Below the pieces are notes generated by a model. It was given only the letters and a program-made list of their open reading frames with translations, had not been told where the DNA came from and made no database searches. Of a stretch of DNA of 40,500 bases, positions 3,556 to 36,390 are shown one piece after another (positions within the stretch are counted from its first letter, which is position 1; every line of letters begins with the position of its first letter). This DNA comes from Candidatus Bathyarchaeia archaeon (GTDB taxonomy: Bacteria > Patescibacteriota > Microgenomatia > UBA1400). The stretch is from assembly GCA_035529355.1 (NCBI GenBank), contig DATKWX010000008.1, positions 1-40,500 on the forward strand, in the 5' to 3' direction. The translations under genes were made by a program, and so were the position numbers.

Positions 3556-4101
3556 ATGACTCAAAAAAGAGTTTTTCAGATGATTTTAGTGGCCCTAGTT
3601 ATCATGTTGATGATTTTGCCTTTTGTGGTTTCGATTAACGACCTTTTGACGCGGGTAGTGGAGAAGTTTGGTTGGTATATGTGGGTCCAAAAAAAAATAG
3701 TTCCTTGGGAAGTAAAAATGGTAGGCGTAATGGTTAGACCATTTAAGATTGAATTTGTGGCTTATCCTGACGGCTTTTTGGCCAATGGCATTTATGCCAG
3801 AATTTCTTGGAACTGTATTGGTTGGCAAAGCCTGCTTTTGTTTTTTTTAAGCCTGCCATTTGGCTTTAAAACAGCTAATTATACTTTTTTTTCTAAAATT
3901 GAGGCTTTTTTAATTGGCATTTTAGGAACTTTTTTAATTAATTTATTAAGAATTACTTTTACGGTGATTTTACTGGTGGTTTCCCGGCCTTTATTTGCCG
4001 TTGTCTTCCATGATTACCTGGCGGCAATCATGACCATTATTTGGCTGATTTTCTTTTGGTGGTTTTGCTATGGATTTGTTTTAGTGGAGAAAACAGAGTA
4101 G
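3556..4101 (+). CDS. minimal exosortase/archaeosortase-family protein (putative sorting transpeptidase)
   Basis: 181 aa and almost entirely TM helices. Cys87 lies in WNCIGWQSLL (tgt 3814-3816), Arg132 in INLLRITF and His152 in VFHDYL. Order and context match the Cys/Arg/His signature of the EpsH/ArtA-type domain. Confidence 0.7.
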   Translation: MTQKRVFQMILVALVIMLMILPFVVSINDLLTRVVEKFGWYMWVQKKIVPWEVKMVGVMVRPFKIEFVAYPDGFLANGIYARISWNCIGWQSLLLFFLSLPFGFKTANYTFFSKIEAFLIGILGTFLINLLRITFTVILLVVSRPLFAVVFHDYLAAIMTIIWLIFFWWFCYGFVLVEKTE

Positions 4102-4133: not shown

Positions 4134-4240
4134 GAAAACTCCGCGGCTTTAGCCCGGAGATGGACTGGGATAATGTTTTCCCAGTACGGGATGAAAACTA
4201 GACCTTGAAGAAACCGCGGTCTTTAGACCGCGGAGTTTTC
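4134..4240 (+). promoter_or_regulatory. structured intergenic RNA-like element with mutually exclusive helices (attenuator/terminator-like)
   Basis: GAAAACTCCGCGG (4134-4146) is the perfect reverse complement of CCGCGGAGTTTTC (4228-4240). A local hairpin CCGCGGTC-TTTA-GACCGCGG (4214-4233) uses the same 3' arm and is followed by AGTTTTCATTT. An inner hairpin is ACTGGGA/TCCCAGT (4164-4185). Confidence 0.3.
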
Positions 4241-4278
4241 ATTTGACAGAGAGGTTGATTTTGCAATAAAGTAAAGCA

Positions 4279-5715
4279 ATGTATCCCGGCCAGACATCAT
4301 TGATTCCCGTTCAGGTCGCTTTGGCCAGGTTTTTAGAATCTCAAGGCCCAAAAGCAATATTTAGTCATTATCCTTATTGGTATTTAGGGAGCACACCTTT
4401 TCGTTACCTTACCGGGCCGGTTCTACCCGGAGGACTTGTTCTTCTTCATAAACTAATACCTGGATTAAATTTTTTTGAACTGTTTTTTGGCTTGATGGTC
4501 GTTTGCTGGCTTTTTTCCGGGGTAGGGGTATATTTTTTAGTTCGTTTGTTATCCAGGCCAAAAGAAGCCGAGCAGTCAGCGAAAAACAGCCTTACTCCTT
4601 TTTTAACCGCCTTTTTTTATTTGCTGGGACCATTTGTTTTCTTTCTTTTCCCTTTTTCCGACGGCCTATCTTTAATTGCTTTTACTTTTCTACCTTGGTT
4701 TTTTATCTTATATACAAAATCTCTTCAACAACCAAAAGCTAAGTATGATATATTACTTTGTATTTTGATATGCTTCATTATACTTACTCATACTTTGATA
4801 ATGCCTTCTCTTTTTTTGGGAATGATGGCCGTGTTGCTGGCGGTTTCCGGCTGGAAAAAAATTGAGCTAAAAATCAAAAAAACCTTGAGGATTATTTTGT
4901 ATGCCTTGCTTTTTGCTACTATTTGGTACATGCCCGGTTATTGGGTTAGGGTTTTACTGGCACCTTCTTTTGCAGGCAAACCATTTTTTAAAGTTGTTTT
5001 TGAGGTAGGGCAGCTTTTGCCCTTGGGTTTGGCGTTTTACCTTGGGGTTCATAAGCTCAAGTCAAAAAACCCGCTTTTTAAGTTTTGCTTTTACTGGCTT
5101 TTTAGCTTCGGTTTTTTAACCTTTTTAAGATTTATTGCTGATCCTGATTTTTGGCTTGATTGGTCTGCTTACGGGATGGAGTTACAGCTAGGGATGAGTA
5201 TACTTTTGGGTTTACTGATTGATCGGTTCAGGCAAAGATATAGAAACCAGCTGATTTTAGTTCCGGTTTTAGCTTTTTACTTATTGCTTTTTTGCCTAAT
5301 ATTTAAAAAGTGGGTTTTAGGAACTTTGCAAAAAGAAATCAATCAATCGATAGAATATAAAATTGGCAGTCAGTTAGTAAAAATTGCCAAGCGAGATGAG
5401 ACTGTTTTTCTCTCAGGAACCAGTGTTTTTTGGCTAAATGCTTTTTATGATATTCCTCAAGTTAGAGGTGGGGTTGATCAGGCATCAGCTAATGCTGATT
5501 GGAGAAAAGCGGCCTGGGAGATAAGAGAAGGCCAAGATCCGGAGAAATCAAGGGAATGGTTGAGGAAACTAGGGGTTAGATACTTAGTGGTTCATACTTT
5601 CAAGTCAGGTGAGTTTTACCATGATTTTAAATTTCCGGACAAATTTGAAGGCTTTCCCGGTATGCAAAAAATTTTGGATTATGAAGGAGACCGAATTTAT
5701 CAGGTTTCTGAGTAG
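4279..5715 (+). CDS. polytopic membrane protein with C-terminal soluble domain (possible GT-C-type glycosyltransferase; family not assignable by eye)
   Basis: 478-aa ORF with about 10 hydrophobic helices, then a hydrophilic tail of about 120 aa. An in-frame TAA at 4267-4269 prevents upstream extension. Confidence 0.6.
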   Translation: MYPGQTSLIPVQVALARFLESQGPKAIFSHYPYWYLGSTPFRYLTGPVLPGGLVLLHKLIPGLNFFELFFGLMVVCWLFSGVGVYFLVRLLSRPKEAEQSAKNSLTPFLTAFFYLLGPFVFFLFPFSDGLSLIAFTFLPWFFILYTKSLQQPKAKYDILLCILICFIILTHTLIMPSLFLGMMAVLLAVSGWKKIELKIKKTLRIILYALLFATIWYMPGYWVRVLLAPSFAGKPFFKVVFEVGQLLPLGLAFYLGVHKLKSKNPLFKFCFYWLFSFGFLTFLRFIADPDFWLDWSAYGMELQLGMSILLGLLIDRFRQRYRNQLILVPVLAFYLLLFCLIFKKWVLGTLQKEINQSIEYKIGSQLVKIAKRDETVFLSGTSVFWLNAFYDIPQVRGGVDQASANADWRKAAWEIREGQDPEKSREWLRKLGVRYLVVHTFKSGEFYHDFKFPDKFEGFPGMQKILDYEGDRIYQVSE

Positions 5716-5732: not shown

Positions 5733-6050
5733 TTAGGAAAAAAAGAAATAAATGATTAATAAAGCGATAAGAACACCGCTACCGAAAGTAAGGGTAGTGA
5801 TAAGAATAAACTGAATGATTTTGGTTAGCCTTTTGGTTTTAGAACTGCCAAGTTTTCCTTTAATAAACCTTTTTTTTCTGGATTTACCCACCTTCATAAG
5901 GTTTACTAACTGTTTTTCGGTGTAGAAACGGCGGTTGGTTGGCGAACGAAAAGGCTTGATTTCCTTAGTTTTTTCCCATCTTCGTAAAGTATCTCTGGAG
6001 ATGCTTAGGTAACGGCTGGCTTTACCAATGGAAAACCACTTAGTTTTCAT
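5733..6050 (-). CDS. small HTH DNA-binding protein (MerR/excisionase-type) with C-terminal TM anchor
   Basis: 105 aa. N-terminal SIGKASRYLSISRDTLRRWEKTKEIKPFRSPTNRRFYTEKQL is typical of excisionase/MerR-type HTH. It is followed by a basic linker and a C-terminal hydrophobic helix (IIQFILITTLTFGSGVLIALLIIYFFF). Confidence 0.7.
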   Translation of the reverse strand: MKTKWFSIGKASRYLSISRDTLRRWEKTKEIKPFRSPTNRRFYTEKQLVNLMKVGKSRKKRFIKGKLGSSKTKRLTKIIQFILITTLTFGSGVLIALLIIYFFFS

Positions 6051-6184: not shown

Positions 6185-6490
6185 TCAAATTAACTTTTTG
6201 AGTTTGAAGGAGGGGAAAAGACGGCGTCGGAGTCTTAAGCCGCTTTCTTCAGCAATACTCACTGCTTCCAACAAAAGTTTGACGCCTTTGAGATTTATGC
6301 CTTCTTTTTGGGTGAGGAAAGTAATAAATTGGAGCTGGTTTAAGTCTTCAATAGAAAAGAGGCGTCTGTTAGTGCTTGTTCGGTGTGGTTCAATAAGCCC
6401 GGCTTGTTCATAAAACATTAATGTTCTTGAGTGTAACCCAAGTAGTTTTGCCGCGACTGAGATAGTTAAAATCGGTTCTTTATCAGACAT
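6185..6490 (-). CDS. MerR-family transcriptional regulator, HspR-like
   Basis: 101 aa. LTISVAAKLLGLHSRTLMFYEQAGLIEPHRTSTNRRLFSIEDLNQLQFITFLTQKEGINLKGVKLLLE follows the MerR HTH-wing pattern and the EGINLxGxK motif seen in HspR-type regulators. Confidence 0.8.
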   Translation of the reverse strand: MSDKEPILTISVAAKLLGLHSRTLMFYEQAGLIEPHRTSTNRRLFSIEDLNQLQFITFLTQKEGINLKGVKLLLEAVSIAEESGLRLRRRLFPSFKLKKLI

Positions 6491-10100: not shown

Positions 10101-13100
10101 GTTTAGCTTCCTTCATTATCCTTTCCTACATCCTTGTTCCTTTCCAAGCCTATGCTTCGGTTAAAGGCTTCATGGAGAAAAAAGAAGGTCCTTGGTTCAG
10201 AACTCCCAAGACTGGAAAGATTACTGATGTTTTCAAAAGAGGTAGTTTTTATCGCTGGGTATCAGGAATACTGCCGGGAAGGAAACTGCCTTCTTTTGGT
10301 TTCTCTTTTCAGTCCCGTGACCTGGCCCTAAACTACCTTCATGATATTACTACCAGTAACAATCCTTTTAGCAACTTCAGGATCAGAAAAAGACATTACC
10401 GGGGTTTTATGGCAACCATGCTTGTTTTCCTGATCATTTGTTCTTCCACCATCTTCAGCATGCTGCCTTCAGTTCCCCAAAACAAGATTCCCTATGCCCA
10501 GGCTCAGGGACAGCTGGGGATTAGTCCTACATCAGCAGAGAACAAAGACACAGCAGACAATGGGAACACCAAGCTGGCCTTAAACTCCATCCCACCTTCT
10601 GGTAATGGAAAACCACCAGTGATTCTGACAGACAACAGAGAGAAGAATTCAGAATCAGCTCAGACCTACCTGCCCGGCAGGCAGGATTCAGAACTGGAAG
10701 AAACAGCCATGAGCGGGAATCAAACCCCAAGTCTTAAAGTTGAAGAACATAGTCCTGATAAAACTCCCCAGGACTTTTACCTTAAAGTCGTAGATCCTGA
10801 GTCCGCAGAAGGAAATGATAAAGGTAACTTTGTTCCTTACAGACTGACTAAGAAAGACAACACCATTGAAGTAGAAACCAGATCAGAAAAAGGCATCCAG
10901 AAGATAGTGATGGATAAAAACTCAACAGAAGTTAGACTTTATGAAAAAACCACAGCCCCAGACACCCCCGAGGTGAATTCTGCAGACACCTCGGGGGTGA
11001 ATCAGGAAGCAACTGACTTTGTTTTTAAGGCAGTCTCGGTACCTATCTTTGAGTACCTTCCTAATGATCACCTCCAAGGTGATTCTTCCTGGCAGGATTA
11101 CACTCCTTTAGTACCGGGAACTTTATCTTCCCAAGACAATGAGGATTACGCTATAGTAAGGTTAGACTTTGACCTTGTTTCCCAGGATCCCTTTGTTTCT
11201 ATCCCAGCTTCCATAGAACTTAAGATAGGCTACAGCAAAGACCAGGGAAGCATTAACAAACTTTCCTTTAGCCTTCAAGATAATCCTAATACCAATAGAC
11301 TAAGGTGGGAGACTAAGATAATTCAGAATTCACCTGCCAGCAATGCTTCGCCCGCCAGCAATGCTTCGCAAAACGATGCGGGCTGGCAAAGCGAGGCAGA
11401 CGGGGAATTCAGAATTCAGAATGATAATTTCAACCTGACAGAACAAAGGAATGAAGACCTGGAACAGCTTTACCAGGCTTCCATCATAAACCCTCCGCTG
11501 GTAAAACAAGACTTTGATAACCTCAACCTAAACTGGTTTGATTTCTTCAAACAGTATTCCTACCCTCCTTATTTAGGAAACAGCGTCAGGGTAGAACAAA
11601 ACGCAGAGGATAATACCAATACGGTTATCTTTTATCCGGAAGGAAAACCAGGCAGGTTGGAGGTGGACCCGACGGTAACTACGACGGTGGCTGTTTCAAC
11701 AATCACGGTTCAAAGTTCAGACTTTGATAACTCCGGCTCAACAGGTTTCAAGATAATCTTTGACAATACTAAAGGTGGCACCATTGATGAGTTTTACCAT
11801 GATTCAATTGGTGTCGGAGCTACTAATATTGTTTCTGGTAATGCTGTTTATGATGCTTTGTTTGATATTGAATATGATGACGCATATCTTTCTGGTGATG
11901 CGACTGGTTCTTTAACCTTAATTGAAGCTAGCCCCAATAGGGCAGTAGTGAAGGCAGTTGGTAATGTGACTACAAATGATGTAGCGACGATTGACTACAC
12001 CATTTATCCTGATGGTCAAGTTTTTATGAAAGTGGCTTTAGAGATTAAAGACGGAGAAAGGAATGGTGAAGGTGATATGTTCTTTCTGATTCAGGACTAT
12101 GACGGTTATAAAGAAACTTACTCAAGCGTGGATGATACTAACAAAGCGGTTGTTTTATTGCCTGACGCCAGCGGTTTTGATACAGCTTTAATTCCTTACT
12201 CAAGTTCTTATGTGGGAACAGTTGATAACGCTGCCAGTGAAGCTAATGACAATATCATGGTCAAATACGATTCAGCGGCTTCAGGCTATGATGATGAAAC
12301 CACGGTTGAAAGTTACTGGTTTTTGGATCTTTCCGAAAGCGCTTATGATGCCACGCTTTTGACCAACAGAAGAAACGAATACCGGAATTTGGAAAATCCT
12401 GATGTTTTGCAAAACCTAAGTCCGACGGTAGTTTCTCCATCTGATTCTTCACCTCCAATTCAGTTATCAAAAGGCTCAATCCAGGTTGATGTGCCTAACA
12501 GATACCGGGCAGTGATGCAGACAGGGGATACGGAGGACTATATGTTAATCTATGACCGGGCGCAGAATGACAGCAGTCCTCTTAATACTTATGAATTTAT
12601 GGGGCCATATATTTATGAAGATAGTGCTGCCTATATGTTAAGGTATCATAACTTGAGAAAGACAACTATTCTGGAGTCTTCCAGTGTAAGAGTGAGAGTG
12701 AGAGTTGAGGGTTGTTTTGACACTGTCGCCGGCGGCGCCTGTCTCGGCGGGACTGATTTTACGGTGATTGAAGATTACACTTTTACCACCGAAGGCATCT
12801 ATGTTTCCAACATTACCGACTTTAATAGCGGCGGCGTGGCTTTAGATACACCGGGAGCCAATGAAAACGGCTACAACTTCCTGATGATTGATGGTGATAT
12901 TCAGGATGATGCTTTTGCTGGTACTTTATATTACGGAGACGGCAATACCGAAGCTAGTTCAGCTGTAGACGCGACTTTTGAGGAAACTAACATTTATGCG
13001 ACTTTTCCGGCGGTTGACGCTTCCGGCTATCAGTCGGCTATTGTCGGTATCCAAAGAGATGGTTGGCTTGACCAAGCAGGAGGAACAGAAGACTGGCGGA

Positions 13101-15637
13101 TTGATATCGGCGTCGGCACCACCGACCGGCTCCACGCCCGAGAGGGCAATGTTACGCCAACAGGCCTTCTCTATGCCAAATGGTATTTTTTGCTCCAGCC
13201 CGAGAACGACTTGGATGCTGAAGCCGAAAGAGAGAGCTTTAACAACGATAATCGTAATCCCGACACTCTCACTTTTGCCACCGGTAACCAATGGAGTTTT
13301 GAGGACGATTCGGACTTGGAGGGACTGTGGTATATGGAGAGCGATGGCTCAACTGCTGAAACCGATCAATCCACTAGGGGTAATAACTTAACGGTTAGTA
13401 CAGACGACACTATACCGCGAACCACCGATGCCAGAGAAGGAACCTACTCCAGGGATTTTGAAAGAAGTGACACTGATTCTTTAGGTATTGCCGATGCCAG
13501 CCAGAAAGGACTGGATTTTACCGCTGTTTTTACTCTTTCCGCTTGGGTGAATCTTGAAACAAACACAAGCGCAGGCGATATAATTTGTAAAGGCAGTTCC
13601 GGAGTGGCAGCCGTCGGTGCTTACAGTATGTACTACAGCGCTGGAAATGGCCTTGGAGCTAGATTAAGTAATGGAAGCGCTTTTAGCTGGCTTGAAACAG
13701 CAGGATCGGTATTGCCTGATGGAAGTTGGAGTCACGTGGCACTTACTTTCAACGGCGCTACAGTCAGAGCTTATATCAACGGTTCGGAAAACCGGACCGG
13801 CAGTTTTCCGGCAAGTTACGCCAATACGTTAGCCAACAGTTCTTACTATTTTTGTATCGGCGGCACTGGCGGAAGTACAAGTTGTAGTGGAACCTTTGAT
13901 GGTTTAATTGATGAGGCCGCTGTTTTTTCCCGCGTCCTATTCCCTGCAGAAATTGAGCAGATTTATAAAGCCGGAGTCAAAGAACACTACAACGAAGCTG
14001 AAGGAGCTTATACGGTTGACGCTTCAGGTTCGCAGGTGAATTTGGATATTGATGGAGGGAGTAACGCTTCGACAGCTGTTGCGACGACAGCAGTTACGGT
14101 TGGAGTAACCTCTATCACCGTTGGTTCAACCACAGGCTTTCCCGCCGCTCCCAGTCTAGCCTATATTGACGGCGACAAGTTTTCCTATACCGGTACAACC
14201 GCGACTACCTTTACCGGTATCCCTGCCAACGGAGAACTCTCTGTTACCGATCATGCTATCGGCAGCGTGGTTTCTTCTATGAACCGGTACAAGCCTAACT
14301 TTAAAATCCGTAACTACCGCCAAAACAGCAAGCCAAGTTCCGTGACCATGGAAGGAGCCGCGCTGGTTGAAGGCACAAATTATAATGTTGACTATAAACC
14401 GGTCTCCGACGCCTATTTTGCCGATGAGTTGCTTTGGGCTTCGACATTAGAAAGCGCCGCGGTGGTGACTAGTCCAGATATAGGTGGCGCCGGTTCAGAA
14501 TGCGGTACTAAACCGAGCTATACTACTGGGAAGTATGGAAATGGGGTTAAGTTTGATGCCAGTGGTGAATGCCTGTATTTTGCCACTACGGGTAACTTTG
14601 ATAAGGCAAAAGGGGCGATTGAATTTTGGTATAAACCAACATTAGTCTATAGTGATGCAGCAACCCATTATTTTATTCAATTATACCAAGACGCTAATAA
14701 TTACTTCCAATTTTACAAAGCAAGTAGTAACAATTTGATTTTCATAATCGATGCCAGCAGTACTCAAAGTGGTGTTCGAGTTGTAAGCACTAACTATTCC
14801 TGGGCCGCTGGCGATTGGGTTCATTTACGAATCCAGTGGGACGATACTGATCTCAGTACCGAAACCCAGATGAAAATTTACATTAATGGAGTGGAGTCGG
14901 CCCATGATCATCCTGCAGCCAACGACTATAACTCAGCTAATTTGACTCTTCCAACTAATATAGGAATTAGTAATTCTGCTGCTGGACTCCATGCTGATGG
15001 GATTATCGATGAATTTCGCGTCTACGGTGGTGCTGCCGCCACTCCAATTACTCTGGCCGATGGCGGCGATATTGCTGATACTGACGAATATCTTTTTGAC
15101 GAAGAAAATGATTATCAATTAGACTTTGATCCGGTTGATGCTGATGCTACAGAAAGAGGAGAATATCTTTTCTTGGGTGCTGACACGATGTTTGCGGGGG
15201 TTAATATTGATCTAGCTACCAATGGGGCAACAGCCGGAAGCTTGAACCTTGTTTGGGAATACTGGAATGGGTCTTCTTGGGCTGATCTTGAGAGTATCTC
15301 CGGGTTTACTGATGGTACCAGCAACCTCACCACTGATGGAGCGATTTACTGGAATGCCAATCCTACCAACTGGAGGCCATACTCAGTTAATGGCTCAAGC
15401 GATCTTTACTATATCCGTACCTCTCTGAAGGATGATTCGGGAACTTATTCCACTGATCCAATTGAAAACTTTATTAAAACTGATATCCTAATCCTCCAAT
15501 ACCTGAGCAACGTTGTTTCAGACAGCCAGACCTTGGTGGTCGTACCGGAATACCTCTGGCCATTCCTGGCAATCATTCCTTTTATCCCAGGGTTTTTGAA
15601 GAAAAGAAAAAAGGGTCAGACCCTGTTAAGGATCTGA
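7196..15637 (+). CDS. giant multidomain membrane protein: 2x transposase-type HTH modules + processive GT2 synthase + LamG-containing ectodomain + C-terminal sorting signal
   Basis: Uninterrupted 8442-nt ORF. 7196-7960: two HTH+winged-HTH modules of IS630/IS481 N-terminal type (SRKTVYQWLAKYKK; SPKSVWLLLKDLDL; ISRKTFYKWLKRYQEAQ; HPEYSTHKVAQVL) with no DDE domain. About 8170-8390: TM helices. 8408-8670: Asn/Gly linker. 8695-9625: GT2 core with DD 8828-8833, DAD 9056-9064, TED 9464-9472 and QRMRW 9578-9592. About 9630-9860: 71 extra codons absent from the paralog. 9890-10160: TM helices, then PWFRTPKTGK. 10411-10467: TM anchor. 10470-15544: ectodomain with two LamG/ConA-like modules (about 13315-13970 FDGLIDEAAVFSRVL; about 14425-15030 ADGIIDEFRVYGG). 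15545-15634: PEY-TM-KKRKK tail. Confidence 0.85.
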   Translation: MSKFTAHASKVIEKVALGRLKKAEASRLLKVSRKTVYQWLAKYKKARENRLRHGKKRELFKQDVLRIGLANSGFGPKKISEELRKREKYLSPKSVWLLLKDLDLGTQKKRWSYTFNFRKPQQVKDANFPGYLRLIPETRKQLLEEVLIGDEPVSHVCQRYHISRKTFYKWLKRYQEAQAKDTVLVKAMADNNPLGFAHPRAISEELQEKILYIVREHPEYSTHKVAQVLAKVGNHGVQNVFQRFNLSTYEKRLVYSQAYQPVTLPPFARILDFLKPVFGRLPTLSAIPPPLIALLANLLVKLRRLSLSSLKEINLKQINFKKIKPLLPYSFLSFLAAVVFSSGFIYWTKMLSQAPNLSAKIGLVMASSALFFGSIFFVYSLKYYFSLILVLSFSRHSPEEGGGLSIALNGRVNGNRNGYGNGSSNANGNTTINSHTGFLGFLKKVFGIEVTANGNGEGNGYSNGEGSTTSQNPKQSFLENGGEHQGNGLQPNLDHIFLTRHPFISIQIPLYNEKRVAKRVIKACMAMKYGPDWPDQPQFEVIVCDDSNDETSKLISDLQRTYGKVKVIMGEDGEKISQVSAIGKPTLKVIHRENREGFKGKALSYALKYMDSQTEFCCVFDADFVPYPDTLTQFIKYFKATGGWEEKQRFVTGSISSIPSDILGRTRLNRSQEQAYQVQEAGLKTKSNIACIAGYQWHVLNKSENWITRGVRSEYAGSYVIERPSQEILGSLKLIHGSSYCMRADVLKHFGWGTSITEDFELTLRLYEKGFKVVYTPYVQAPAECVSTIKRLIRQRMRWAEGHSFNIKKMFGRLMFGRWQELQPCHSEFISESSPKTVILNLFQHLFHLRKVGILKQVQDDVGRQVQSLSRIHFGNDAVEGSARRFIPSPLTFPEKVEFLYLSPYYLQAFFFLLGTFSWLIAETVFKARLPFWTALWGWSLVLTNFFALPLLNAVGLFLEEAEEKDYSGLASFIILSYILVPFQAYASVKGFMEKKEGPWFRTPKTGKITDVFKRGSFYRWVSGILPGRKLPSFGFSFQSRDLALNYLHDITTSNNPFSNFRIRKRHYRGFMATMLVFLIICSSTIFSMLPSVPQNKIPYAQAQGQLGISPTSAENKDTADNGNTKLALNSIPPSGNGKPPVILTDNREKNSESAQTYLPGRQDSELEETAMSGNQTPSLKVEEHSPDKTPQDFYLKVVDPESAEGNDKGNFVPYRLTKKDNTIEVETRSEKGIQKIVMDKNSTEVRLYEKTTAPDTPEVNSADTSGVNQEATDFVFKAVSVPIFEYLPNDHLQGDSSWQDYTPLVPGTLSSQDNEDYAIVRLDFDLVSQDPFVSIPASIELKIGYSKDQGSINKLSFSLQDNPNTNRLRWETKIIQNSPASNASPASNASQNDAGWQSEADGEFRIQNDNFNLTEQRNEDLEQLYQASIINPPLVKQDFDNLNLNWFDFFKQYSYPPYLGNSVRVEQNAEDNTNTVIFYPEGKPGRLEVDPTVTTTVAVSTITVQSSDFDNSGSTGFKIIFDNTKGGTIDEFYHDSIGVGATNIVSGNAVYDALFDIEYDDAYLSGDATGSLTLIEASPNRAVVKAVGNVTTNDVATIDYTIYPDGQVFMKVALEIKDGERNGEGDMFFLIQDYDGYKETYSSVDDTNKAVVLLPDASGFDTALIPYSSSYVGTVDNAASEANDNIMVKYDSAASGYDDETTVESYWFLDLSESAYDATLLTNRRNEYRNLENPDVLQNLSPTVVSPSDSSPPIQLSKGSIQVDVPNRYRAVMQTGDTEDYMLIYDRAQNDSSPLNTYEFMGPYIYEDSAAYMLRYHNLRKTTILESSSVRVRVRVEGCFDTVAGGACLGGTDFTVIEDYTFTTEGIYVSNITDFNSGGVALDTPGANENGYNFLMIDGDIQDDAFAGTLYYGDGNTEASSAVDATFEETNIYATFPAVDASGYQSAIVGIQRDGWLDQAGGTEDWRIDIGVGTTDRLHAREGNVTPTGLLYAKWYFLLQPENDLDAEAERESFNNDNRNPDTLTFATGNQWSFEDDSDLEGLWYMESDGSTAETDQSTRGNNLTVSTDDTIPRTTDAREGTYSRDFERSDTDSLGIADASQKGLDFTAVFTLSAWVNLETNTSAGDIICKGSSGVAAVGAYSMYYSAGNGLGARLSNGSAFSWLETAGSVLPDGSWSHVALTFNGATVRAYINGSENRTGSFPASYANTLANSSYYFCIGGTGGSTSCSGTFDGLIDEAAVFSRVLFPAEIEQIYKAGVKEHYNEAEGAYTVDASGSQVNLDIDGGSNASTAVATTAVTVGVTSITVGSTTGFPAAPSLAYIDGDKFSYTGTTATTFTGIPANGELSVTDHAIGSVVSSMNRYKPNFKIRNYRQNSKPSSVTMEGAALVEGTNYNVDYKPVSDAYFADELLWASTLESAAVVTSPDIGGAGSECGTKPSYTTGKYGNGVKFDASGECLYFATTGNFDKAKGAIEFWYKPTLVYSDAATHYFIQLYQDANNYFQFYKASSNNLIFIIDASSTQSGVRVVSTNYSWAAGDWVHLRIQWDDTDLSTETQMKIYINGVESAHDHPAANDYNSANLTLPTNIGISNSAAGLHADGIIDEFRVYGGAAATPITLADGGDIADTDEYLFDEENDYQLDFDPVDADATERGEYLFLGADTMFAGVNIDLATNGATAGSLNLVWEYWNGSSWADLESISGFTDGTSNLTTDGAIYWNANPTNWRPYSVNGSSDLYYIRTSLKDDSGTYSTDPIENFIKTDILILQYLSNVVSDSQTLVVVPEYLWPFLAIIPFIPGFLKKRKKGQTLLRI
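9669..9826. mobile_element. cluster of four small palindromic (GTCATTC..GAATGAC family) hairpin units embedded in frame in the giant CDS
   Basis: 9669-9693: GTCATTCTGAA-TTTAT-TTCAGAATC. 9707-9731: degenerate copy. 9755-9778: ATCCTGAA-ACAAG-TTCAGGATGAC. 9802-9826: GTCCCGAA-TTCAT-TTCGGGAATGAC. The segment is missing from the paralog at the homologous position. The same unit family is intergenic at 23913-24002. Confidence 0.6.
11333..11368 (+). repeat. 18-bp tandem duplication (PASNAS x2) inside the giant CDS
   Basis: cctgccagcaatgcttcg / cccgccagcaatgcttcg, 17 of 18 identical. It is flanked by ATTCAGAAT(TCA) repeats at 11321-11332 and 11407-11422. Confidence 0.7.
15545..15634 (+). other. C-terminal tripartite sorting signal (PEY - hydrophobic helix - KKRKK)
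   Basis: PEYLWPFLAIIPFIPGFLKKRKKGQTLLRI. The layout matches PEP-CTERM/PEF-CTERM-type signals. The motif PFIP and the basic cluster are shared with the paralog tail. Confidence 0.55.
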
Positions 15638-15980: not shown

Positions 15981-18900
15981 ATGACTACCAAACTGTCTGT
16001 TCAGCAAAGAATAAGGTTGATAAATAAGGTTACTAAAGAGGGAAGGTCTGTTTCTGAGGTTTGCAAAAAAGCCGGTATTTCCCGTGTCCTTTTTTACCGC
16101 TTACTAAAACGGTATCAGGAAGAGGGAACAGTTAGGCCTAAAAAAAACAAAGGAAAAAGGCCAACCCGGAGAGTCAGCGAAGAAAATGTTATCAAAATAA
16201 TTAGCTTGGTTAAGAAACATCCCCGGTGGTCTTCTCATCAGTTAAGCCAACATGTTTCCACAGGCAATCATGGGGTATGGAATGTTTTAGCCAGGTTGCA
16301 CCTAAATACCGTTAAGAAAAGGGAGTATTTCAGCAAGCAAAGCCGCAATTTAACCTTTGGCCGGTTGCGCAAACTGGCAAGAGGAGAGATTAAAAGTCCC
16401 AAGCCAACAGCTTTAAAACTCAAGGCCAGCAGGCGTTTGGCCATGATTAAGCAAATAGAAGAAGGGCAAAAGCCGGTAGCCCAGGCTTGCCGGGAGTTTG
16501 GTATTTCCCGGCCAGTCTTTTATAAATGGTATCAGCGTTATCTTGAAGCTCCGAGAGGGCAGAAATTGGTGGCCATGAAAGATAAAGAACGGAAAATTGA
16601 ACGCTTTAGCCGCCAGATTCCGGTTAAATACGAAAAAGCGGTGTTGCAGGCAGTGGTTAGGCATCCCGAATACGGGATTAAGAAAATAATGGTTTGTTTA
16701 CCCCAAATAGCGGCTAAGCCAATTGTAGGTTATCATGGCGTTCAGCGGGTTTTGGAAAGGAATAAACTAAACACTTATGAGTTGAGAAAAGCTTATGCTC
16801 AAACTCAGCTAACTCCCGTCATTAGAATCATTAGCATTCTTGAAGATAGCTTTGCCAAAATAGCTTACCTACCTCTTCTTGTCAGACAGAAATTTATCAT
16901 ATTAGGCAGTCTTGCGGTCTTTTCCTGCTTTTTGACCGTGGTAGGATTGGGAGCCTTAGGCTACTTTGGCAGTTTACTAAAACAAGTGCCAGGAAATGCT
17001 AAAATTGGTATTATTTTGGCTGGTAACGCCTTGGTTATTGGTTCAATCTTTTTTTGCTACTCTTTAAAGTACTATTTTAATTTGGCTTTAGTGCTTTCTT
17101 TTTCCAGGCATTCTCCGGAAGAAGGCGGAGGTCTAAGCCTATCCTTAAATGGGATAGTAAATAACAACAGGGCGGGTAATGGTAAAGGCAACGGTAAGCC
17201 TGGGTTTTTAGGTTTCCTTAAAAAGGTCTTTGGGGTTGACCTAGGCGCTAATGAGGGCGGTAACGGTTTTAAGAATGGCAAAAAGACATTTTTAGGTAAT
17301 GGTTTACGAATGCAGGATGGTGGTTTACAGATTAATATGGAGAGGATTGACCTTAACCGTCATCCTTTCATTTCCGTCCAGATCCCTTTGTACAATGAGA
17401 AGAGAGTAGCCAAAAGAGTCATCAAGGCCTGCATGGCCATGAAGTATGGCCCTGACTGGCCAGATAAACCCCAGTTTGAGGTAATCGTTTGTGATGACTC
17501 CAATGATGAAACCAGTAAACTCATCTCAGACCTCCAGCAAACCTATGGCAAGGTTAAGGTAGTTAGGGGAGAAGACGGAGAAAAGATCTCCCAAGTCTCA
17601 GCCATCGGTAAACCTACCCTCAAGGTAATCCATCGGGAGAACAGGGAAGGTTTCAAAGGCAAAGCTTTATCTTATGCCCTGAAGCACATGGATCCTCAAA
17701 CCGAGTTTGTTTGTGTCTTTGATGCTGACTTTGTTCCTTACCCCGATACCTTAATCCAGTTTATCAAGTATTTTAAGGCTACCGGTGGCTTTGAAGAAAA
17801 ACAGAGTTTTGTAACAAAGAATATTAGTTCGATACCATATGATATATTGGCAAGGAATAATCCACAGGGAAATACCAACCTAACCAGAGATCAGAAGCAA
17901 GCCTATCAAACCCAGGAAGCAAGACTTAAGAACAAGTCCAATATAGCCTGTATTGCCGGCTACCAATGGCATGTCTTAAACAAATCAGAAAACTGGATTA
18001 CTAGGGGAGTCAGATCAGAATATGCCGGATCCTACGTCATTGAAAGACCAAGCCAGGAAATCCTAGGCAGTTTAAAGCTTATCCATGGCTCTTCATACTG
18101 CATGAGAGCTGATGTCCTAAAGCACTTTGGCTGGGGTAGTAGTATTACTGAAGACTTTGAACTTACCCTAAGACTATATGAAAAAGGTTTCAAGGTTGTC
18201 TACACTCCCTATGTCCAAGCTCCGGCTGAGTGTGTGAGTACCATCAAAAGACTGGTTAGACAGAGAATGAGATGGGCTGAAGGCCACTCGTTTAATATCA
18301 AGAAGATGTTCTGGTTGCTGATAAAAAGTCCAGGGATGAACTTAATGGAGAAAACAGAGCTTTTATATTACACACCCTATTACCTCCAGGCATTTTTATT
18401 TTTAGTTGGCACTTTTTCCTGGTTGTTGGCAGAAACCGTCTTTAAAGCCCATCTGCCTTTCTGGACCTCACTTTGGGGTTGGAGTCTAATTTTGACCAAC
18501 TTTTTCAGCCTGCCTTTACTTAATGCCGTGGGTTTATTCCTTGAGGAAGCGGAGGAAAAAGATTATTCAGGCCTGATTTCCTTTATTATCCTTTCCTACA
18601 TCCTTGTTCCTTTTCAAGCTTATGCTTCGGTCAAAGGATTCCTGGAGAAAGAAGAAGGTCCCTGGTTCAGAACTCCCAAGACTGGAAAGATTACTGATAT
18701 TTTTAAAAGAGGTCAATTTTACCGTTGGATAGCAGGAATTTTGCCCAGGCGGGAACCAGCATTGCAAGGAGTGATGGGAAGCGGCTTGGTTCCTGCTTAT
18801 GCTTATCAGCAAAACCCTTATTTGGTCCGGCAAACAGCCACAGGCTGGTTTAACAATTTTCGCGTCCAACCCAAGCGTTTGCGTTGGGTTTCAAAAATGG

Positions 18901-19595
18901 CCTTGTCTCTTTTACTGGCTTTTTCCGTGACTCTTTTAAGTTTAAGTCAAGGGGTAAGAGAAGTTCAGGCAAGCCCTTGGAACAATTTATACTTACATGA
19001 AGATAATGGGGTATGCAGCACTTTGGATACCATGACGACTTCAGTCGGAACAACAGGCCAACAGCAAATAGTGATTTCCGCCTCAAATACGGGTCCTTTT
19101 AACTGGTATTCAAACTCCTTGCCTACCGGTACTCTTGATGCTTCAACAACCGCTGGCAACTGGAATTTCCATTGGGAGGGAGTATTTTATGCTGCCGCTG
19201 GTGGAGCCAAGGTGGTACTTAATATTGTGATTAGTTTGGTTGATGCTTCAGATTGTAGCAGCAGTGCCGATAATTTATATAGCGGAACTTACCAGTTTAG
19301 CTCCAATGGTCCGATAACGATTACTACTGCTGTTCCAGCACGAACAATCACTACGGCTGCTCCCAAAAGAGTCAGGTGGCAGACTTCTTGGAGTAGTACC
19401 AATAAGGCCGGTTCGACAATGAGCATTAAATACAATGATACGGTGGTCAGTGGTTTTGATTCCAATCTTCAGCCAGCGACTTTAACGATTCCGGAAAGAC
19501 TAGTTTTACTGCTGGTGGTAGCGCCCTTTATTCCCATACTTGCAAGTTGGCTTAAGAAGAAAAGAGAAAAGGGTCAGACCCTTGACAGGGTCTGA
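15981..19595 (+). CDS. paralogous multidomain membrane protein: 2x HTH modules + processive GT2 synthase + short ectodomain + C-terminal sorting signal
   Basis: 1204-aa ORF. 15981 to about 16800: two HTH modules (GISRVLFYRLLKRYQEEG; GISRPVFYKWYQRYLEAPRG; HPEYGIKKIM). TM helices and an NG linker follow. 17361-18300: GT2 core nearly identical in DNA to copy 1, with QRMRW at 18261-18275. More TM helices and PWFRTPKTGK follow. 18897-18955: TM anchor. The ectodomain is about 180 aa. 19491-19592: PER-TM-KKKREK tail. Confidence 0.85.
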   Translation: MTTKLSVQQRIRLINKVTKEGRSVSEVCKKAGISRVLFYRLLKRYQEEGTVRPKKNKGKRPTRRVSEENVIKIISLVKKHPRWSSHQLSQHVSTGNHGVWNVLARLHLNTVKKREYFSKQSRNLTFGRLRKLARGEIKSPKPTALKLKASRRLAMIKQIEEGQKPVAQACREFGISRPVFYKWYQRYLEAPRGQKLVAMKDKERKIERFSRQIPVKYEKAVLQAVVRHPEYGIKKIMVCLPQIAAKPIVGYHGVQRVLERNKLNTYELRKAYAQTQLTPVIRIISILEDSFAKIAYLPLLVRQKFIILGSLAVFSCFLTVVGLGALGYFGSLLKQVPGNAKIGIILAGNALVIGSIFFCYSLKYYFNLALVLSFSRHSPEEGGGLSLSLNGIVNNNRAGNGKGNGKPGFLGFLKKVFGVDLGANEGGNGFKNGKKTFLGNGLRMQDGGLQINMERIDLNRHPFISVQIPLYNEKRVAKRVIKACMAMKYGPDWPDKPQFEVIVCDDSNDETSKLISDLQQTYGKVKVVRGEDGEKISQVSAIGKPTLKVIHRENREGFKGKALSYALKHMDPQTEFVCVFDADFVPYPDTLIQFIKYFKATGGFEEKQSFVTKNISSIPYDILARNNPQGNTNLTRDQKQAYQTQEARLKNKSNIACIAGYQWHVLNKSENWITRGVRSEYAGSYVIERPSQEILGSLKLIHGSSYCMRADVLKHFGWGSSITEDFELTLRLYEKGFKVVYTPYVQAPAECVSTIKRLVRQRMRWAEGHSFNIKKMFWLLIKSPGMNLMEKTELLYYTPYYLQAFLFLVGTFSWLLAETVFKAHLPFWTSLWGWSLILTNFFSLPLLNAVGLFLEEAEEKDYSGLISFIILSYILVPFQAYASVKGFLEKEEGPWFRTPKTGKITDIFKRGQFYRWIAGILPRREPALQGVMGSGLVPAYAYQQNPYLVRQTATGWFNNFRVQPKRLRWVSKMALSLLLAFSVTLLSLSQGVREVQASPWNNLYLHEDNGVCSTLDTMTTSVGTTGQQQIVISASNTGPFNWYSNSLPTGTLDASTTAGNWNFHWEGVFYAAAGGAKVVLNIVISLVDASDCSSSADNLYSGTYQFSSNGPITITTAVPARTITTAAPKRVRWQTSWSSTNKAGSTMSIKYNDTVVSGFDSNLQPATLTIPERLVLLLVVAPFIPILASWLKKKREKGQTLDRV
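19491..19592 (+). other. C-terminal tripartite sorting signal (PER - hydrophobic helix - KKKREK)
   Basis: PERLVLLLVVAPFIPILASWLKKKREKGQTLDRV. It shares (V/I)PE-x-L, PFIP and a Lys-rich cluster with the 15545-15634 signal, although the two ectodomains are unrelated. Confidence 0.55.
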
Positions 19596-19615: not shown

Positions 19616-20275
19616 ATGCCCAGAAAGAATGTGGTGAAAATTTACGTTGAAGACGGCTATTACCATCTCTATAACAGAGGTGTAGAGAAAAGAGTGATTT
19701 TTAGCGACAAAAGGGATTATAAAACTTTCCTTTACTTTTTAAAAAGCTACCTCACACCTGTGCCAAAAAAGATTCCTCCTTTTGACAGGCGGCAAGTAAG
19801 GAGTTTATCAAAGGATATTGATTTGCTTGTTTACTGCCTTATGCCTAACCATTTCCATTTATTAGTTAAACAGAAAAGCGAAAGGGGAATAACTAAATTT
19901 ATGCGCGCCTTATGTACTAATTACGTGATGTATTTTAATCAAAGGTATCAGCGTTTGGGAGGTTTATTTCAAAGTGCTTATAAAGCGGTTTTGGTAGAAA
20001 CTGATGAGCAACTATTGCATCTTTCCCGGTATATTCATTTGAATCCATCAGAATTACTTGGGAAACATCAATTATTAGAAGATTACCTTTATTCAAGCTA
20101 CGATGACTATATGGGAAAAAGAAAGACAAATTGGCTTAAAACAGAAACGATTTTGGATTATTTTAAAACTGCTCGTAAAACCAGCCTTAATGATTTTCTT
20201 TCTTATCAAGGTTTTGTGGAATCTTATAAAGAAGACGAGAAGGAATTCAGTTTTAAAGGAGTAACGTTAGAATAA
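19616..20275 (+). CDS. REP-associated tyrosine transposase (RAYT; IS200/IS605-like Y1 HUH transposase)
   Basis: 219 aa. YHLYNRGVEKRVIF; HUH motif in LVYCLMPNHFHLLVKQ; GGLFQSAYKAVLV with the catalytic-type Tyr; LSRYIHLNP. The gene is bracketed by REP hairpins at 19571-19598 and 20297-20330. Confidence 0.85.
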   Translation: MPRKNVVKIYVEDGYYHLYNRGVEKRVIFSDKRDYKTFLYFLKSYLTPVPKKIPPFDRRQVRSLSKDIDLLVYCLMPNHFHLLVKQKSERGITKFMRALCTNYVMYFNQRYQRLGGLFQSAYKAVLVETDEQLLHLSRYIHLNPSELLGKHQLLEDYLYSSYDDYMGKRKTNWLKTETILDYFKTARKTSLNDFLSYQGFVESYKEDEKEFSFKGVTLE

Positions 20276-20340: not shown

Positions 20341-21660
20341 ATGCCATTTAAGCGTCCGAAAAAAGAAGAAACCTTAGCCAAAAAAGCAGTCAAAAGAAAC
20401 TATCGTCTTTTTTTTAACAACCGGCTTATGACAATTTTACCCCGGTGGTGGGTAGGGACAGCAGAGATTTTGGGTTTAACGCTTCTTTTTTTGCTAAACT
20501 TCCTTTTGCTTTTGCCCTTTTTTGGCCAGGAAGATAAGTCTAATATTTTTTCTGCGCCCTTAATCCCGGTTTTAAGTAAACTGTTTTTTTTAATGTCTTT
20601 TCCCGTGGCAATTCGTTTTTGGTTGCTGTTTTTTATTCTTTTTCTGCCGGTTACGTTCTATTTTTTTGTCCGGGAGATTTCCGGCCGGAGAATAACGGCT
20701 TTTTTGGCCTCCTTGATTATTAGCTTGCCGTTGGGCATTTTTCTACCTTTAAGATTAAAACTGGCTCTTTTTACTGAAGACGGCAACCATATTGCTTCCT
20801 TGACTTTAGGCATTTTAGCTTGCTTGTTTTTGTTAAGATTTTTGCGCAGCGGTAATTTTAAAATGGGTGTAAGTTCCAGCTTACTTATAAGCCTGGTGGC
20901 TTTAACTTCGCCTTTGGGGTTGTTTATCCTCGGCTGTTTTAGCTTGGCGATTAGTTTTTCCGAGATGCTTTTAAGTCAAGGAAGATTAAAGTTTTTCCGT
21001 TTTTTAACGGTTTTTATGCTGGCTGCGGGATTAGTATCTTTTTGGTACAATCCCGGTTTTGTTTTTCTGATTGTTGCTTCACCCCAAGGAGAGTTGATAA
21101 AAGGAACTTTGGCCAGTTTGTTCCCTTTGTCCTTTTTTTTGGTGCCTTTGCTGGGCGCTTTCGGTTTTTTGCTTTTTGAAAACCGTCCTCGCCTCCAACC
21201 GCTTTTTTTAGCCGTGTTTTTAAGCATTGGTTTTGGCCTTTTGTCTTTAGGCGCTGGCATGCAACTTTCCAGCCCCTACCGTTTTTTGCCCAGTTTAGGG
21301 ATGGCTTTGGCCTTTTTAGGAAGCATTGTCCTGGCAAGAATTTTTGATTTTTTGAAAAGAAGGCGCAGTTTCCGGCAGTTTAGCGGCATAAGCCGATACA
21401 GAAAACAGATTTTGTTTTTCTCAATTACTTTGTTTTTTACCATCATTACTTCTATTATTATGGCTTCAGCTAAAAATTTCGGACAACTGGAGCAAGAAGA
21501 GGTTTTAGGCTTGGTTGACTCCAAAACAACGGGAATTTGGGAGGCTAGGAACGCTATTGGCTGGTTTCACCACATTATAGGTGGTAGCATTAGTTTTTCG
21601 ACCGCAGGTTTGCTTATCTTTATCAGAAAACAGCTTGCTAAGCAAAAAAATGAGGAATAA
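20341..21660 (+). CDS. polytopic integral membrane protein (possible polymerase/GT-C-like; unassigned)
   Basis: 439-aa ORF, hydrophobic throughout (more than 10 predicted helices) with a basic N-terminus. It is the first gene of a same-strand, overlapping gene string. Confidence 0.6.
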   Translation: MPFKRPKKEETLAKKAVKRNYRLFFNNRLMTILPRWWVGTAEILGLTLLFLLNFLLLLPFFGQEDKSNIFSAPLIPVLSKLFFLMSFPVAIRFWLLFFILFLPVTFYFFVREISGRRITAFLASLIISLPLGIFLPLRLKLALFTEDGNHIASLTLGILACLFLLRFLRSGNFKMGVSSSLLISLVALTSPLGLFILGCFSLAISFSEMLLSQGRLKFFRFLTVFMLAAGLVSFWYNPGFVFLIVASPQGELIKGTLASLFPLSFFLVPLLGAFGFLLFENRPRLQPLFLAVFLSIGFGLLSLGAGMQLSSPYRFLPSLGMALAFLGSIVLARIFDFLKRRRSFRQFSGISRYRKQILFFSITLFFTIITSIIMASAKNFGQLEQEEVLGLVDSKTTGIWEARNAIGWFHHIIGGSISFSTAGLLIFIRKQLAKQKNEE

Positions 21661-36100: not shown

Positions 36101-36390
36101 TAGAGAAAATTAAAATTTACCGTGGTGGACCTAGCCTTATGATTATGCCTCTTAAAGAAATTAAAGAAGGTGATAGATTGAAGCTTTATTATCAAGAGCC
36201 GGTTTTATTTAAGTTTTTAAAAATTTTAGCAGTAATGACTTTTTTAGTTCTTTTTACTTTGATGTTTGGCTGTGGGCGAAAGTTTAGTAGATCAGCTATA
36301 GCGAGGTTAAGCAGACTTAGGCCAAAAAGTTTAAACTTTAACTTTTTTAAAAGTTTAAAAGAAAAATGGGGGAAAGAAGAAGATTATTAA
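33163..36390 (+). CDS. large polytopic membrane protein with about 550-aa extracytoplasmic domain and C-terminal TM (GT-C/YfhO-like candidate)
   Basis: 1075 aa with about 13 N-terminal helices, a long hydrophilic domain and a terminal helix (ILAVMTFLVLFTLMF) followed by a basic tail. The family call is by architecture only. Confidence 0.6.
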   Translation: MIKSVLKFFGWLLVSLIVYLERFIFLIFSLSLFFIITLFFGHGFLTSEDLLGNDIYNVFSHINWINRYFPKIPFWYPVEGTGTSLQYGYPILSHLITVFASRLFGLSIIESFRWLGFLSIFLTGAGIYFYGWLRLKSQIIGLMAGFFYLVSTIAYCWLFQFGFYAESIGLVFMPWAIICFEFFLEKLQKKQGKAFFWLFLSALLWGMAFFCHYVLGIGLLTYFFFLTINSFWKKRKLSRKRIKRGILAILIFGLAIFGLWSFRFIPSARFLMIADREGLETKHSFEQLDYSAPQLKTLFAMVAPILETEEFKDADYFWKEYHFVLPVILLFFLGSLVCLFIPNLRLFVIFSWWAFIIFSLPHLRYFLMKKLPFGLFFFFDIRTFFSVVRLMIPIVTGAGIWKLLTGVHELVVRIFTGKRKKSWSERLIKETMALPLLLGLLMFLFYFGRKLPEDPSWVLRYGWNSLGERGAFDLRDIWHKRNDDICPLSIEGKKELEEKLCQFPQVRSKFNVIELSTFCVQERDAQKELPDFCLAERIDQQTVDQLLEWCDKSPDSVYCQARFDSPAVQIAKFLPELKLNRQVNFLEEQERGFLKNLKEQEVNRYDVSPKLARFINGSTYYTDVSRFTFSTHQLSLNHSFWSYLQGLYYTDDPVNRTPGVVEELAKWFGIKKVFLNIDDPIENFDGNFWFKDDETSKLVSLKTKEALKLAVLSNRPTFLVIGDFKKGVLHDLFKLSNRGVLPYDDFWLVEGSKNVDDYSLNELKNFDGLILHGYGYKSRQRGWERLDQYIKEGGLVFLNAGWQYTVPDWEMEEAPKFLPVKQTKWTDYGKTGDFLVNENLLGKGVEEDKFADLVWDGKPWSVSGVKSNDLRDWAQIILSFKDNPLMVGGNYGKGKVIWSGVNLLAHALENKNEEEIKFLGTVFKWLAKDKEKKDVDLEILRSNPDKVEFIFHGDLKRGWLLWKEAYFTDWRAKIYQNGEVEKIKIYRGGPSLMIMPLKEIKEGDRLKLYYQEPVLFKFLKILAVMTFLVLFTLMFGCGRKFSRSAIARLSRLRPKSLNFNFFKSLKEKWGKEEDY

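Follow-up and report, generated by a model that had tools for sequence, protein, structure and literature searches.

The 40.5 kb of genome discussed here (positions 1 to 40,500 of contig DATKWX010000008.1, hereafter the window) contains, in our opinion, a very small sorting enzyme together with the proteins that carry its signal. We consider it probable that the open reading frame (ORF) at 3556-4101, a mini exosortase/archaeosortase-family protein, is a dedicated intramembrane cysteine (trans)peptidase, and that its cognate signal is a C-terminal tail consisting of [VI]-P-E-x, a helix with an A-P-F-x-P core and a Lys/Arg cluster. This tail is found on two large proteins of the same window, called P1 and P2 below, in which helix-turn-helix (HTH) domains are fused to a family 2 glycosyltransferase (GT2) synthase of the membrane. 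The first-pass annotation of this DNA had named these two fusions as the likely substrates of the enzyme. That view is now strongly supported, as far as comparison of sequences can support it: the window synthases appear to carry the cognate signal, sortase and tail-bearing genes are adjacent in dozens of genomes, and natural fusions join the two.

The mini-sortase and its relatives

The assignment of the protein to the exosortase/archaeosortase family was borne out. The ORF and the three motifs quoted for it (Table 1) are all present in the translation, and the superfamily core model TIGR04178 (exo_archaeo, NCBIfam) aligns positions 2-92 of its 97 with residues 82-171 of the sortase at 33.1 bits and E=5e-8, which is above the curated cutoff of 23 bits. 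The subfamily models, the ArtA-ArtG and XrtA-like ones among them, all remain below their cutoffs: XrtK (17.3 bits, cutoff 55) and XrtM (13.3 bits, cutoff 125) alone appear, and the protein reaches the curated cutoff of no named subfamily (XrtA-Y, ArtA-G, CrtA-C, thaumarchaeosortase, pacearchaeosortase). A Pfam search with the sortase gave zero matches. The start at 3556 is preferred over that of a shorter gene call (P0001, 173 amino acids, aa), because homologs keep M1, K4 and F7 in the alignment.

Cys87, Arg132 and His152, the catalytic candidates, are invariant across 20 homologs of 58-76% identity and occur in 49 of 50 diverse relatives of 23-50% identity. Individually, 49 of these 50 also match TIGR04178 (best E=7.9e-13), and their matches to subfamily models (ArtC, CrtC, XrtX, XrtG, ArtF) are weak, the best having E=2e-8. 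For the family as a whole a triad of Cys, Arg and His is suspected (Haft, bioRxiv 10.1101/2023.06.07.544157), and in the ArtA of Haloferax Cys173, Arg214 and Arg253 are experimentally required (PMC9263693). The single exception among the 50 relatives, P0353, is a family member without Cys, Arg and His and may be an inactive paralog. In another relative, P0211, the sortase domain is joined to a C-terminal half that resembles a SAM-methyltransferase.

A database search with the sortase returned 394 homologs at E<=1e-3. Among the best 120 of these, nearly all are 170-220 aa long, the named ones come from Patescibacteria, Microgenomates or Gottesmanbacteria, and several already carry the generic label "exosortase/archaeosortase family protein". 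The family profile, run against 1.84 billion representative proteins, found 298 at E<=1e-3. Judged by these searches, the family is a small isolated clade, mainly of Microgenomates-type Patescibacteria.

Two descriptions in the first-pass annotation need some qualification. The protein was called minimal, and at 181 aa this is indeed correct, but the size is not unique: the curated models of XrtK and XrtM, with 163 and 150 positions, are just as short. It was also said to be essentially only transmembrane (TM) helices. Four membrane helices are predicted; however, the AlphaFold2 model (pLDDT 78.9, pTM 0.69), with helices at 2-38, 40-63, 85-105, 111-142 and 153-175 and a small three-stranded sheet at 67-82, may be read as four membrane helices plus an extracellular segment of about 55 residues (amphipathic helix and sheet, residues 31-84).

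A tail signal and its probable pairing with the sortase

P1 ends in ...VVVPEYLWPFLAIIPFIPGFLKKRKKGQTLLRI and P2 in ...LTIPERLVLLLVVAPFIPILASWLKKKREKGQTLDRV, and both ends fit the tail pattern of the family (their parts are given in Table 1). No other window ORF of at least 100 aa has [VI]-P-E-x followed by a helix and a Lys/Arg tail, and the earlier statement that the two synthase fusions are the sole window proteins with such a C-terminus therefore holds for ORFs of that size.

The pattern was derived from 65 tails anchored on PE, about four of them false positives. The helix and the K/R cluster are present in all 65, the residue before P-E is V or I in 54, and Pro occurs in the helix at +11 in 33 and at +14 in 43 (the A-P-F-x-P core). 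The basic cluster begins at about +18, and the median distance from Pro to the end of the protein is 31 residues. The PE motif abuts the helix without a spacer and positions inside the helix are conserved, which are traits of signals cut by deeply embedded enzymes (Haft, bioRxiv 10.1101/2023.06.07.544157). Deep embedding is predicted for the sortase as well, with four membrane helices, fewer than the eight after which the XrtA-type model is named. The curated CTERM models of NCBIfam gave nothing relevant for the P1 and P2 tails; when 35 tails were compared with CTERM models, two touched PEP_CTERM (E=0.035) and three MYXO-CTERM (E=0.005). A subclass of tails reads VPEIPKP..., followed by the helix, SGRF[RK]K and a longer conserved cytoplasmic end, ...LD.LPV (P0124, P0132, P0134, P0135, P0143, P0146-P0149 and P0152).

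By the Haft criteria the tail appears to qualify as the signal of a dedicated system, with one exception. It has a near-C-terminal location, a hydrophobic helix and a basic cluster, and in related loci the genes for enzyme and target are consecutive or nearby. The exception is the N-terminal signal peptide expected on targets: the N-terminus of these targets is a cytoplasmic HTH and GT2 module.

The comparison set consisted of 80 genome loci encoding sortase relatives, mostly from Woese-, Gottesman-, Curtiss-, Levy-, Davies- or Chisholmbacteria, with a few labelled Chloroflexi, Dormibacterota or Bathyarchaeota. One test made no use of PE: the co-directional ORF no more than 200 nucleotides upstream of the sortase was taken, and its tail was scored by helix and basic cluster. 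Such an ORF exists at 65 sortase genes and ends in helix and basic cluster at 40 of them, and 37 of those 40 have P-E immediately before the helix, although PE had played no part in their selection. (In some of the sortase-ectodomain fusions described below, Ser or Asp stands in the place of Pro, and Glu alone is constant.) With the PE detector, a tail gene was found directly upstream at 37 of the 80 testable sortases, often overlapping the sortase by its stop codon and the sortase's start codon, within 5 kb upstream at 15 more and elsewhere in the locus at 11 more. Applied to reversed decoy proteins the detector found 1 in 1319, against 67 real ones, and chance is thus excluded as the source of the tails.

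Tail-bearing proteins are nearly all homologs of the window synthases, with 33-63% identity over the GT2/membrane part. Seen from the other side, 62 of 87 database homologs of P2 have the tail, most of the others being cut by contig ends, and in a reverse lookup the sortase was the next gene for two of three synthases (L082, L083). Genomes with two sortases tend to have two synthases, for example L040 and L057.

The pairing is further seen in two kinds of natural fusion. A profile search found P0295 (946 aa), P0314 (1227 aa) and the fragment P0294, in which a single chain contains, in this order, a GT2 synthase, an ectodomain, an "IEVPEN..." helix, a basic linker and the sortase domain. P0295 and P0314 are 45-55% identical, and hence this architecture is not a single assembly artefact. 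In the other kind, represented by six proteins of 428-474 aa (P0271, P0272, P0274, P0281, P0310 and P0321), the order is sortase domain, helix, an ectodomain of about 200 aa and tail. Natural fusions are classic evidence of a functional link, and such a link between sortase and tail is what these proteins suggest. What the first-pass annotation had staked its case on, namely a match to the domain model, conservation of Cys, Arg and His in homologs and the existence of PE-type tails alongside relatives of this gene, was found in each instance.

Topology, processing and alternative readings

Both synthase fusions follow one plan: two transposase-like HTH, membrane helices, a processive GT2, membrane helices again, an ectodomain and the tail. 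P1 and P2 are 62% identical across the GT2/membrane part, and their ectodomains are unrelated to each other, that of P1 being acidic, about 1690 aa long and equipped with Laminin_G_3, that of P2 being Ser/Thr-rich and about 180 aa long. DAD, TED and QRMRW are present in both GT2 domains, Pfam GT2 families match, and the closest solved relative is the cellulose synthase BcsA (E=1.4e-5). Going by these motifs and the flanking membrane helices, P1 and P2 would both be processive membrane GT2 synthases of the BcsA-like type. The tandem HTH pairs (7196-8040 in P1 and 15981-16850 in P2) are like the N-terminus of IS481/IS630/IS3 transposases; their fusion to a membrane GT2 is conserved across Patescibacteria homologs, and some database copies are hence named "transposase". 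The HTH part is absent from the synthases of about 785 aa that occur in contigs with a Chloroflexi or Dormibacterota label.

The distribution of charges fits one topology. In P2 the loop before the last synthase helix has 15 K/R against 5 D/E, and in P1 the equivalent figures are 16 and 5; the region after this helix in P1 has 102 K/R against 244 D/E. Because it is basic, the loop would lie inside, and because it is acidic (P1) or Ser/Thr-rich (P2), the region after the helix would lie outside, so that the tail is predicted to re-cross the membrane with its basic cluster inside. For the sortase, both fusion architectures imply that the N- and C-termini are cytoplasmic. With the termini inside, helices 2 and 4 would begin at the outer face, with Cys87 and His152 at their starts, and Arg132, in the outer part of helix 3, would be at this face too, which is where PE lies.

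The helix that precedes the ectodomain deserves attention of its own. An alignment of 86 distinct homologs divides it into a basic stretch (consensus F-x-I-K-P-K-R-L-R-W), a hydrophobic core behind it and, last, [VI]-P-x-[VA]-x-A / [STA]. Position -1 of the candidate site is Ala in 55, Ser in 9 and Gly in 3 (67 of 86 in total), position -3 is Val in 39, Ala in 19, Gly in 6, Ser in 5 and Thr in 5 (74 of 86), and position -5 is Pro in 42 of 86. Type I signal peptidase sites obey a -3/-1 rule. In its n/h/c layout the helix looks like a Sec signal peptide, complete with such a site, and V-x-A is found also after the post-sortase helix of the sortase-ectodomain fusions (VRA/N, VSA/E, VKA/S, VYA/A). 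The ectodomain may therefore be cut from the synthase and then held by the tail alone, in which case the substrate of the sortase would be a released, secreted-type surface protein. This touches on the earlier claim that the target of the sortase is the C-terminal end of a polytopic enzyme and not a normal secreted protein: the synthases do bear the tail, but the intact enzyme is not secured as the substrate, given the conserved V-x-A site.

The order of events that we propose is as follows. The GT2 module would sit in the membrane with the HTH and catalytic domains in the cytoplasm, as the charge distribution suggests. The next helix would export the ectodomain, and the tail helix would re-anchor it with the basic cluster inside, which agrees with the charges and with the fusion architectures. 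Signal peptidase I would then probably cut after V-x-A and free the N-terminus of the ectodomain; here we rely on the conservation of the motif only. The neighbouring GT-C enzyme may, speculatively, glycosylate the Ser/Thr/Asn-rich ectodomain. Finally, by analogy with ArtA, Cys87, Arg132 and His152 at the outer ends of their helices would cut at or next to PE on the outer face, the helix and basic tail would be removed, and the new C-terminus would be either released or passed to a lipid or cell-envelope acceptor. ArtA substrates become lipid-anchored (PMC9263693), and those of rhombosortase receive glycerophosphoethanolamine (Haft, bioRxiv 10.1101/2023.06.07.544157).

A different possibility, which we regard as real though clearly the less probable one, is that the ectodomain never leaves the synthase and that the sortase trims or re-anchors the intact polytopic enzyme, for instance to switch the synthase on or to link its ectodomain to the envelope. 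Synthase and ectodomain are indeed in one reading frame in all homologs, and cleaved internal signal peptides are unusual in bacteria. In P1 the best A-x-A candidate does not line up with the site in the family alignment, and the c-region, at about 9 residues, is on the long side. However, the preferences at -1, -3 and -5 given above follow a basic stretch and a hydrophobic core, as they would in a cleaved signal; the site recurs after the sortase domain in independent sortase-ectodomain fusions; and an anchor that stays uncleaved has no need of a V-x-A motif. It is much harder to believe that the small protein cuts nothing and is a non-catalytic subunit or chaperone binding the terminal helix of the synthase. 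Its very small size would agree with such a role, no activity is known for close relatives, and P0353 lacks all three candidate residues, but retention of Cys, Arg and His in the other 49 of 50 relatives would be surprising, a binding partner having no need of the near-invariant WNC.GWQ / R / H[DN]Y set, and the homologous Cys173 and Arg214 are needed for the activity of ArtA (PMC9263693).

We give least credit of all to the idea that the tails are ordinary terminal membrane anchors and that the sortase has its targets among unlinked proteins encoded elsewhere. The visible part of the genome is no more than about 40 kb, which leaves room for other tail-bearing proteins, and the sortases that have no tail-bearing neighbour (17 of 80, discussed below) could be taken the same way. 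On the contrary, the frequent direct adjacency with overlapping stop and start codons, the two kinds of natural fusion and the parallel numbers of sortases and synthases in genomes such as L040 and L057 all point to a dedicated pair, and PE is near-invariant before the helix though the ectodomains are unrelated.

Several observations nevertheless weigh against our proposal of a dedicated peptidase with a cognate signal on the synthases. In the window itself the sortase adjoins neither synthase, the gaps being 3.1 kb and 11.9 kb, and a single sortase would have to serve two targets; no second sortase homolog was found in the window. In the comparison set 17 of the 80 testable sortase genes are without a tail-bearing ORF in the available flank, and the third synthase of the reverse lookup (L081, of the VPEIPKP...LDELPV subclass) has no adjacent sortase in the single locus checked. 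(The L081 genome carries a sortase on another contig, L005.) The family profile does not directly reach classical exosortases, and the tie to the superfamily thus rests on the 97-position signature model and the weak matches of relatives. Structural comparison offers no help: a PDB sequence search with the family profile gave nothing at E<=10, the sortase model run against the PDB with Foldseek gave a best E of 0.4 and no meaningful match, and we found no solved exosortase fold. Finally, cleavage, the position of the cut and any transfer are inferred for every member of the family.

We may go one step further and speculate, with little confidence, that the whole is a surface-coat module. Synthase and cargo would be made as one polyprotein, which in some lineages includes the sortase as well, the sortase would transfer the C-terminus of the cargo onto the glycan of the attached synthase, or onto lipid, to give these ultra-small bacteria an envelope of protein-polysaccharide conjugate, and the HTH pair would couple the system to DNA or gene control.

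The surrounding locus and related systems

Table 1. Positions of the sortase, the synthase fusions, their signals and selected neighbours in the window
Feature	Position	Strand	Details and basis
Mini exosortase/archaeosortase-family protein	3556..4101	+	ATG start, 181 aa; four membrane helices (ORF, translation)
Cys87, catalytic candidate in WNCIGWQSLL	3814-3816	+	Translation, homolog conservation
Arg132, catalytic candidate in INLLRITF	3949-3951	+	Translation, homolog conservation
His152, catalytic candidate in VFHDYL	4009-4011	+	Translation, homolog conservation
Third gene, 478-aa polytopic protein, GT-C oligosaccharyltransferase-like predicted fold	4279..5715	+	AlphaFold2 pLDDT 86.1, Foldseek
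MerR-family regulator genes	5733-6050; 6185-6490	-	Between the sortase/GT-C pair and synthase 1
Synthase fusion 1 (P1), 2813 aa	7196..15637	+	Pfam, NCBIfam, motifs, hydropathy and charge
P1 helix equivalent to that of P2, residues 1068-1103, candidate site A1101-Q-A1103 / Q1104	10397..10504	+	Less certain, out of alignment register
P1 putative sorting signal: V2783-P-E-Y, helix LWPFLAIIPFIPGFL, KKRKK, GQTLLRI	15542..15634	+	Fits family tail pattern
Synthase fusion 2 (P2), 1204 aa	15981..19595	+	Pfam, NCBIfam, motifs, hydropathy and charge
P2 signal-peptide-like helix, residues 969-997, after PKRLR, ends V995-Q-A997 / S998	18885..18971	+	Hydropathy, alignment
P2 putative sorting signal: I1170-P-E-R, helix LVLLLVVAPFIPILASWL, KKKREK, GQTLDRV	19488..19592	+	Fits family tail pattern
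IS200-like Y1 transposase	19616..20275	+	Pfam Y1_Tnp; synteny
439-aa membrane protein, distant relative of the GT-C gene	20341..21660	+	hhalign probability 90%, E=1.5e-6 against the 478-aa family

The gene after the sortase encodes a 478-aa protein whose predicted structure has the GT-C fold. Its best Foldseek matches are STT3, AglB and PglB, then DPY19 and AftA (probability 1.0, query-normalised TM 0.46-0.64), whereas Pfam gave no match above threshold, only a sub-threshold one to PF10131, and NCBIfam gave nothing for the neighbouring membrane proteins. Homologs of this gene occur in 27 of the 80 loci, frequently directly downstream of the sortase, and those of the 439-aa gene immediately follow the sortase in 11 loci. 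The synthase with its cargo, the mini-sortase and the oligosaccharyltransferase-like GT-C enzyme form a recurrent cassette.

The window departs from the order of this cassette, with the sortase and the GT-C gene in front, next the two MerR genes on the other strand and then the two synthases. MerR homologs are present in 12 of the related loci. A terminator-like strong hairpin (CCGCGGTCTTTAGACCGCGG and a T run) at 4214-4233, between the sortase and the GT-C gene, is followed by a promoter-like TTGACA-18-TAAAGT at 4243-4272, and for this reason the window sortase may be transcribed on its own. Between synthase 2 and the 439-aa gene, at the place of the sortase in related loci, stands the IS200-like element. 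A degraded second sortase under this element was considered and set aside, no remnant being detected.

The last 45 or so nucleotides of the P1 and P2 genes (15592-15637 and 19550-19595) are nearly identical, GAAGAAAAGA.AAAAGGGTCAGACCCT...TCTGA. This stretch includes the palindrome GGGTCAGACCC and encodes the shared K-G-Q-T-L ending, which was not seen among the other tails listed in the tail alignment and the P2 homologs. Gene conversion or a shared 3' element may account for the near-identical ends.

Outside the genes treated so far the window is a large glycan locus; many methyltransferases, radical SAM/SPASM proteins and several GT4s are encoded there, along with GH39, an epimerase and a PMT_2-type GT-C. 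Inside it lie a 602-aa fusion of GT2 with radical SAM/SPASM (28563-30371) and a separate radical SAM/SPASM protein (37491-38468, minus strand). A protein of 1075 aa (33163-36390) has no Pfam match above threshold and weak ones to PF10131 and DUF6541; its homologs are found in 11 sortase loci, and it is possibly a further large membrane protein of the GT-C-like kind. Scans of the window for tRNAs and with Rfam were empty and hence provide no anchor for its taxonomy.

As for the host, proteins identical to those of the window (P0121, P0358; locus tag VMW29) carry the NCBI label "Candidatus Bathyarchaeia archaeon". The window sortase has its closest homologs (74-78% identity) in Patescibacteria, the whole neighbourhood is Patescibacteria-like, and the promoter and terminator matches are of the sigma-70 type. 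The contig is probably mis-binned. Related metagenome-assembled genomes (MAGs) in third-party annotation (TPA) records are often implausibly labelled as well, for example "uncultured Gammaproteobacteria", and MAG taxonomy labels are unreliable.

How does this system compare with those already described? The closest functional analogue is ArtA/PGF-CTERM of Haloferax volcanii with its associated oligosaccharyltransferase. The superfamily signature is common to both, and so is the tripartite signal, in which a motif abuts the helix and basic residues follow. The substrate of ArtA is a glycosylated surface protein, and the GT-C neighbour found here parallels TIGR04154, the ArtA-system-associated oligosaccharyltransferase. 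ArtA also processes signals that are not at the extreme C-terminus (PMC9263693), as the synthase-signal-sortase fusions would require. There are also differences. The motif here is [VI]PE and not PGF; the enzyme has about 180 aa and four helices, whereas ArtA is longer, as the numbering of Cys173 and Arg253 implies; and the window sortase matches no ArtA-G model. The relation of enzyme to substrate is one-to-one or one-to-few and gene-linked, unlike the up to dozens of substrates of ArtA. Moreover, the substrate is here fused to a GT2 synthase, and the system belongs to bacteria (Patescibacteria).

In genomic arrangement the nearest analogue is the XrtG system of Firmicutes, where an exosortase homolog is linked to GT2 glycosyltransferases in a monoderm host; there, however, Firmicu-CTERM is on a separate protein and the two GT2 are separate genes (PMC12854382), while here the synthase itself bears the signal. 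The similarity extends to the models. XrtG is weakly matched by 16 of the 50 family members, and P2 weakly matches the XrtG- and XrtP-associated GT2 models, in each case far below the curated cutoffs. Neighbouring membrane proteins in the window weakly match PF10131, which we take to be part of XrtG loci.

With XrtA/XrtB and PEP-CTERM the system shares the superfamily, P-E in the motif and a glycan context, exopolysaccharide loci in the one case and a large glycan locus in the other. A genome, however, encodes many PEP-CTERM proteins, and these start with a signal peptide, the tails of our family touch the PEP_CTERM model only in the two weak cases given above, the XrtA-type enzymes have eight TM helices (model 8TM_EpsH), and their hosts have an outer membrane. 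XrtK and XrtM resemble the window sortase in minimal size and weak similarity to their models, but its scores are well under both cutoffs, so that it is a member of neither. What appears to be new, then, is a sortase that is in the superfamily but in no named subfamily, and a tail that is in no named signal class. In a limited library we found no papers linking exosortases or archaeosortases to the CPR, Patescibacteria or Microgenomates, or to signals borne by synthases.

Current annotation gives the sortase a generic name, leaves the tail signal without a name and calls the synthases "glycosyltransferase" or "transposase". Exosortases are widespread, and this clade could make their biochemistry easier. 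According to a 2018 review no exosortase had been analysed experimentally, and the acceptor, as well as the choice between transfer and cleavage alone, remain open (Haft, bioRxiv 10.1101/2023.06.07.544157). An enzyme of about 180 aa, a single gene-linked substrate and, in some lineages, enzyme-substrate fusions are useful properties in this respect, and such a compact pair could be expressed in a laboratory host. The cassette resembles the maturation of archaeal S-layer glycoproteins by ArtA and AglB, in a bacterial setting, and it bears on how uncultured Microgenomates-type Patescibacteria build their surface.

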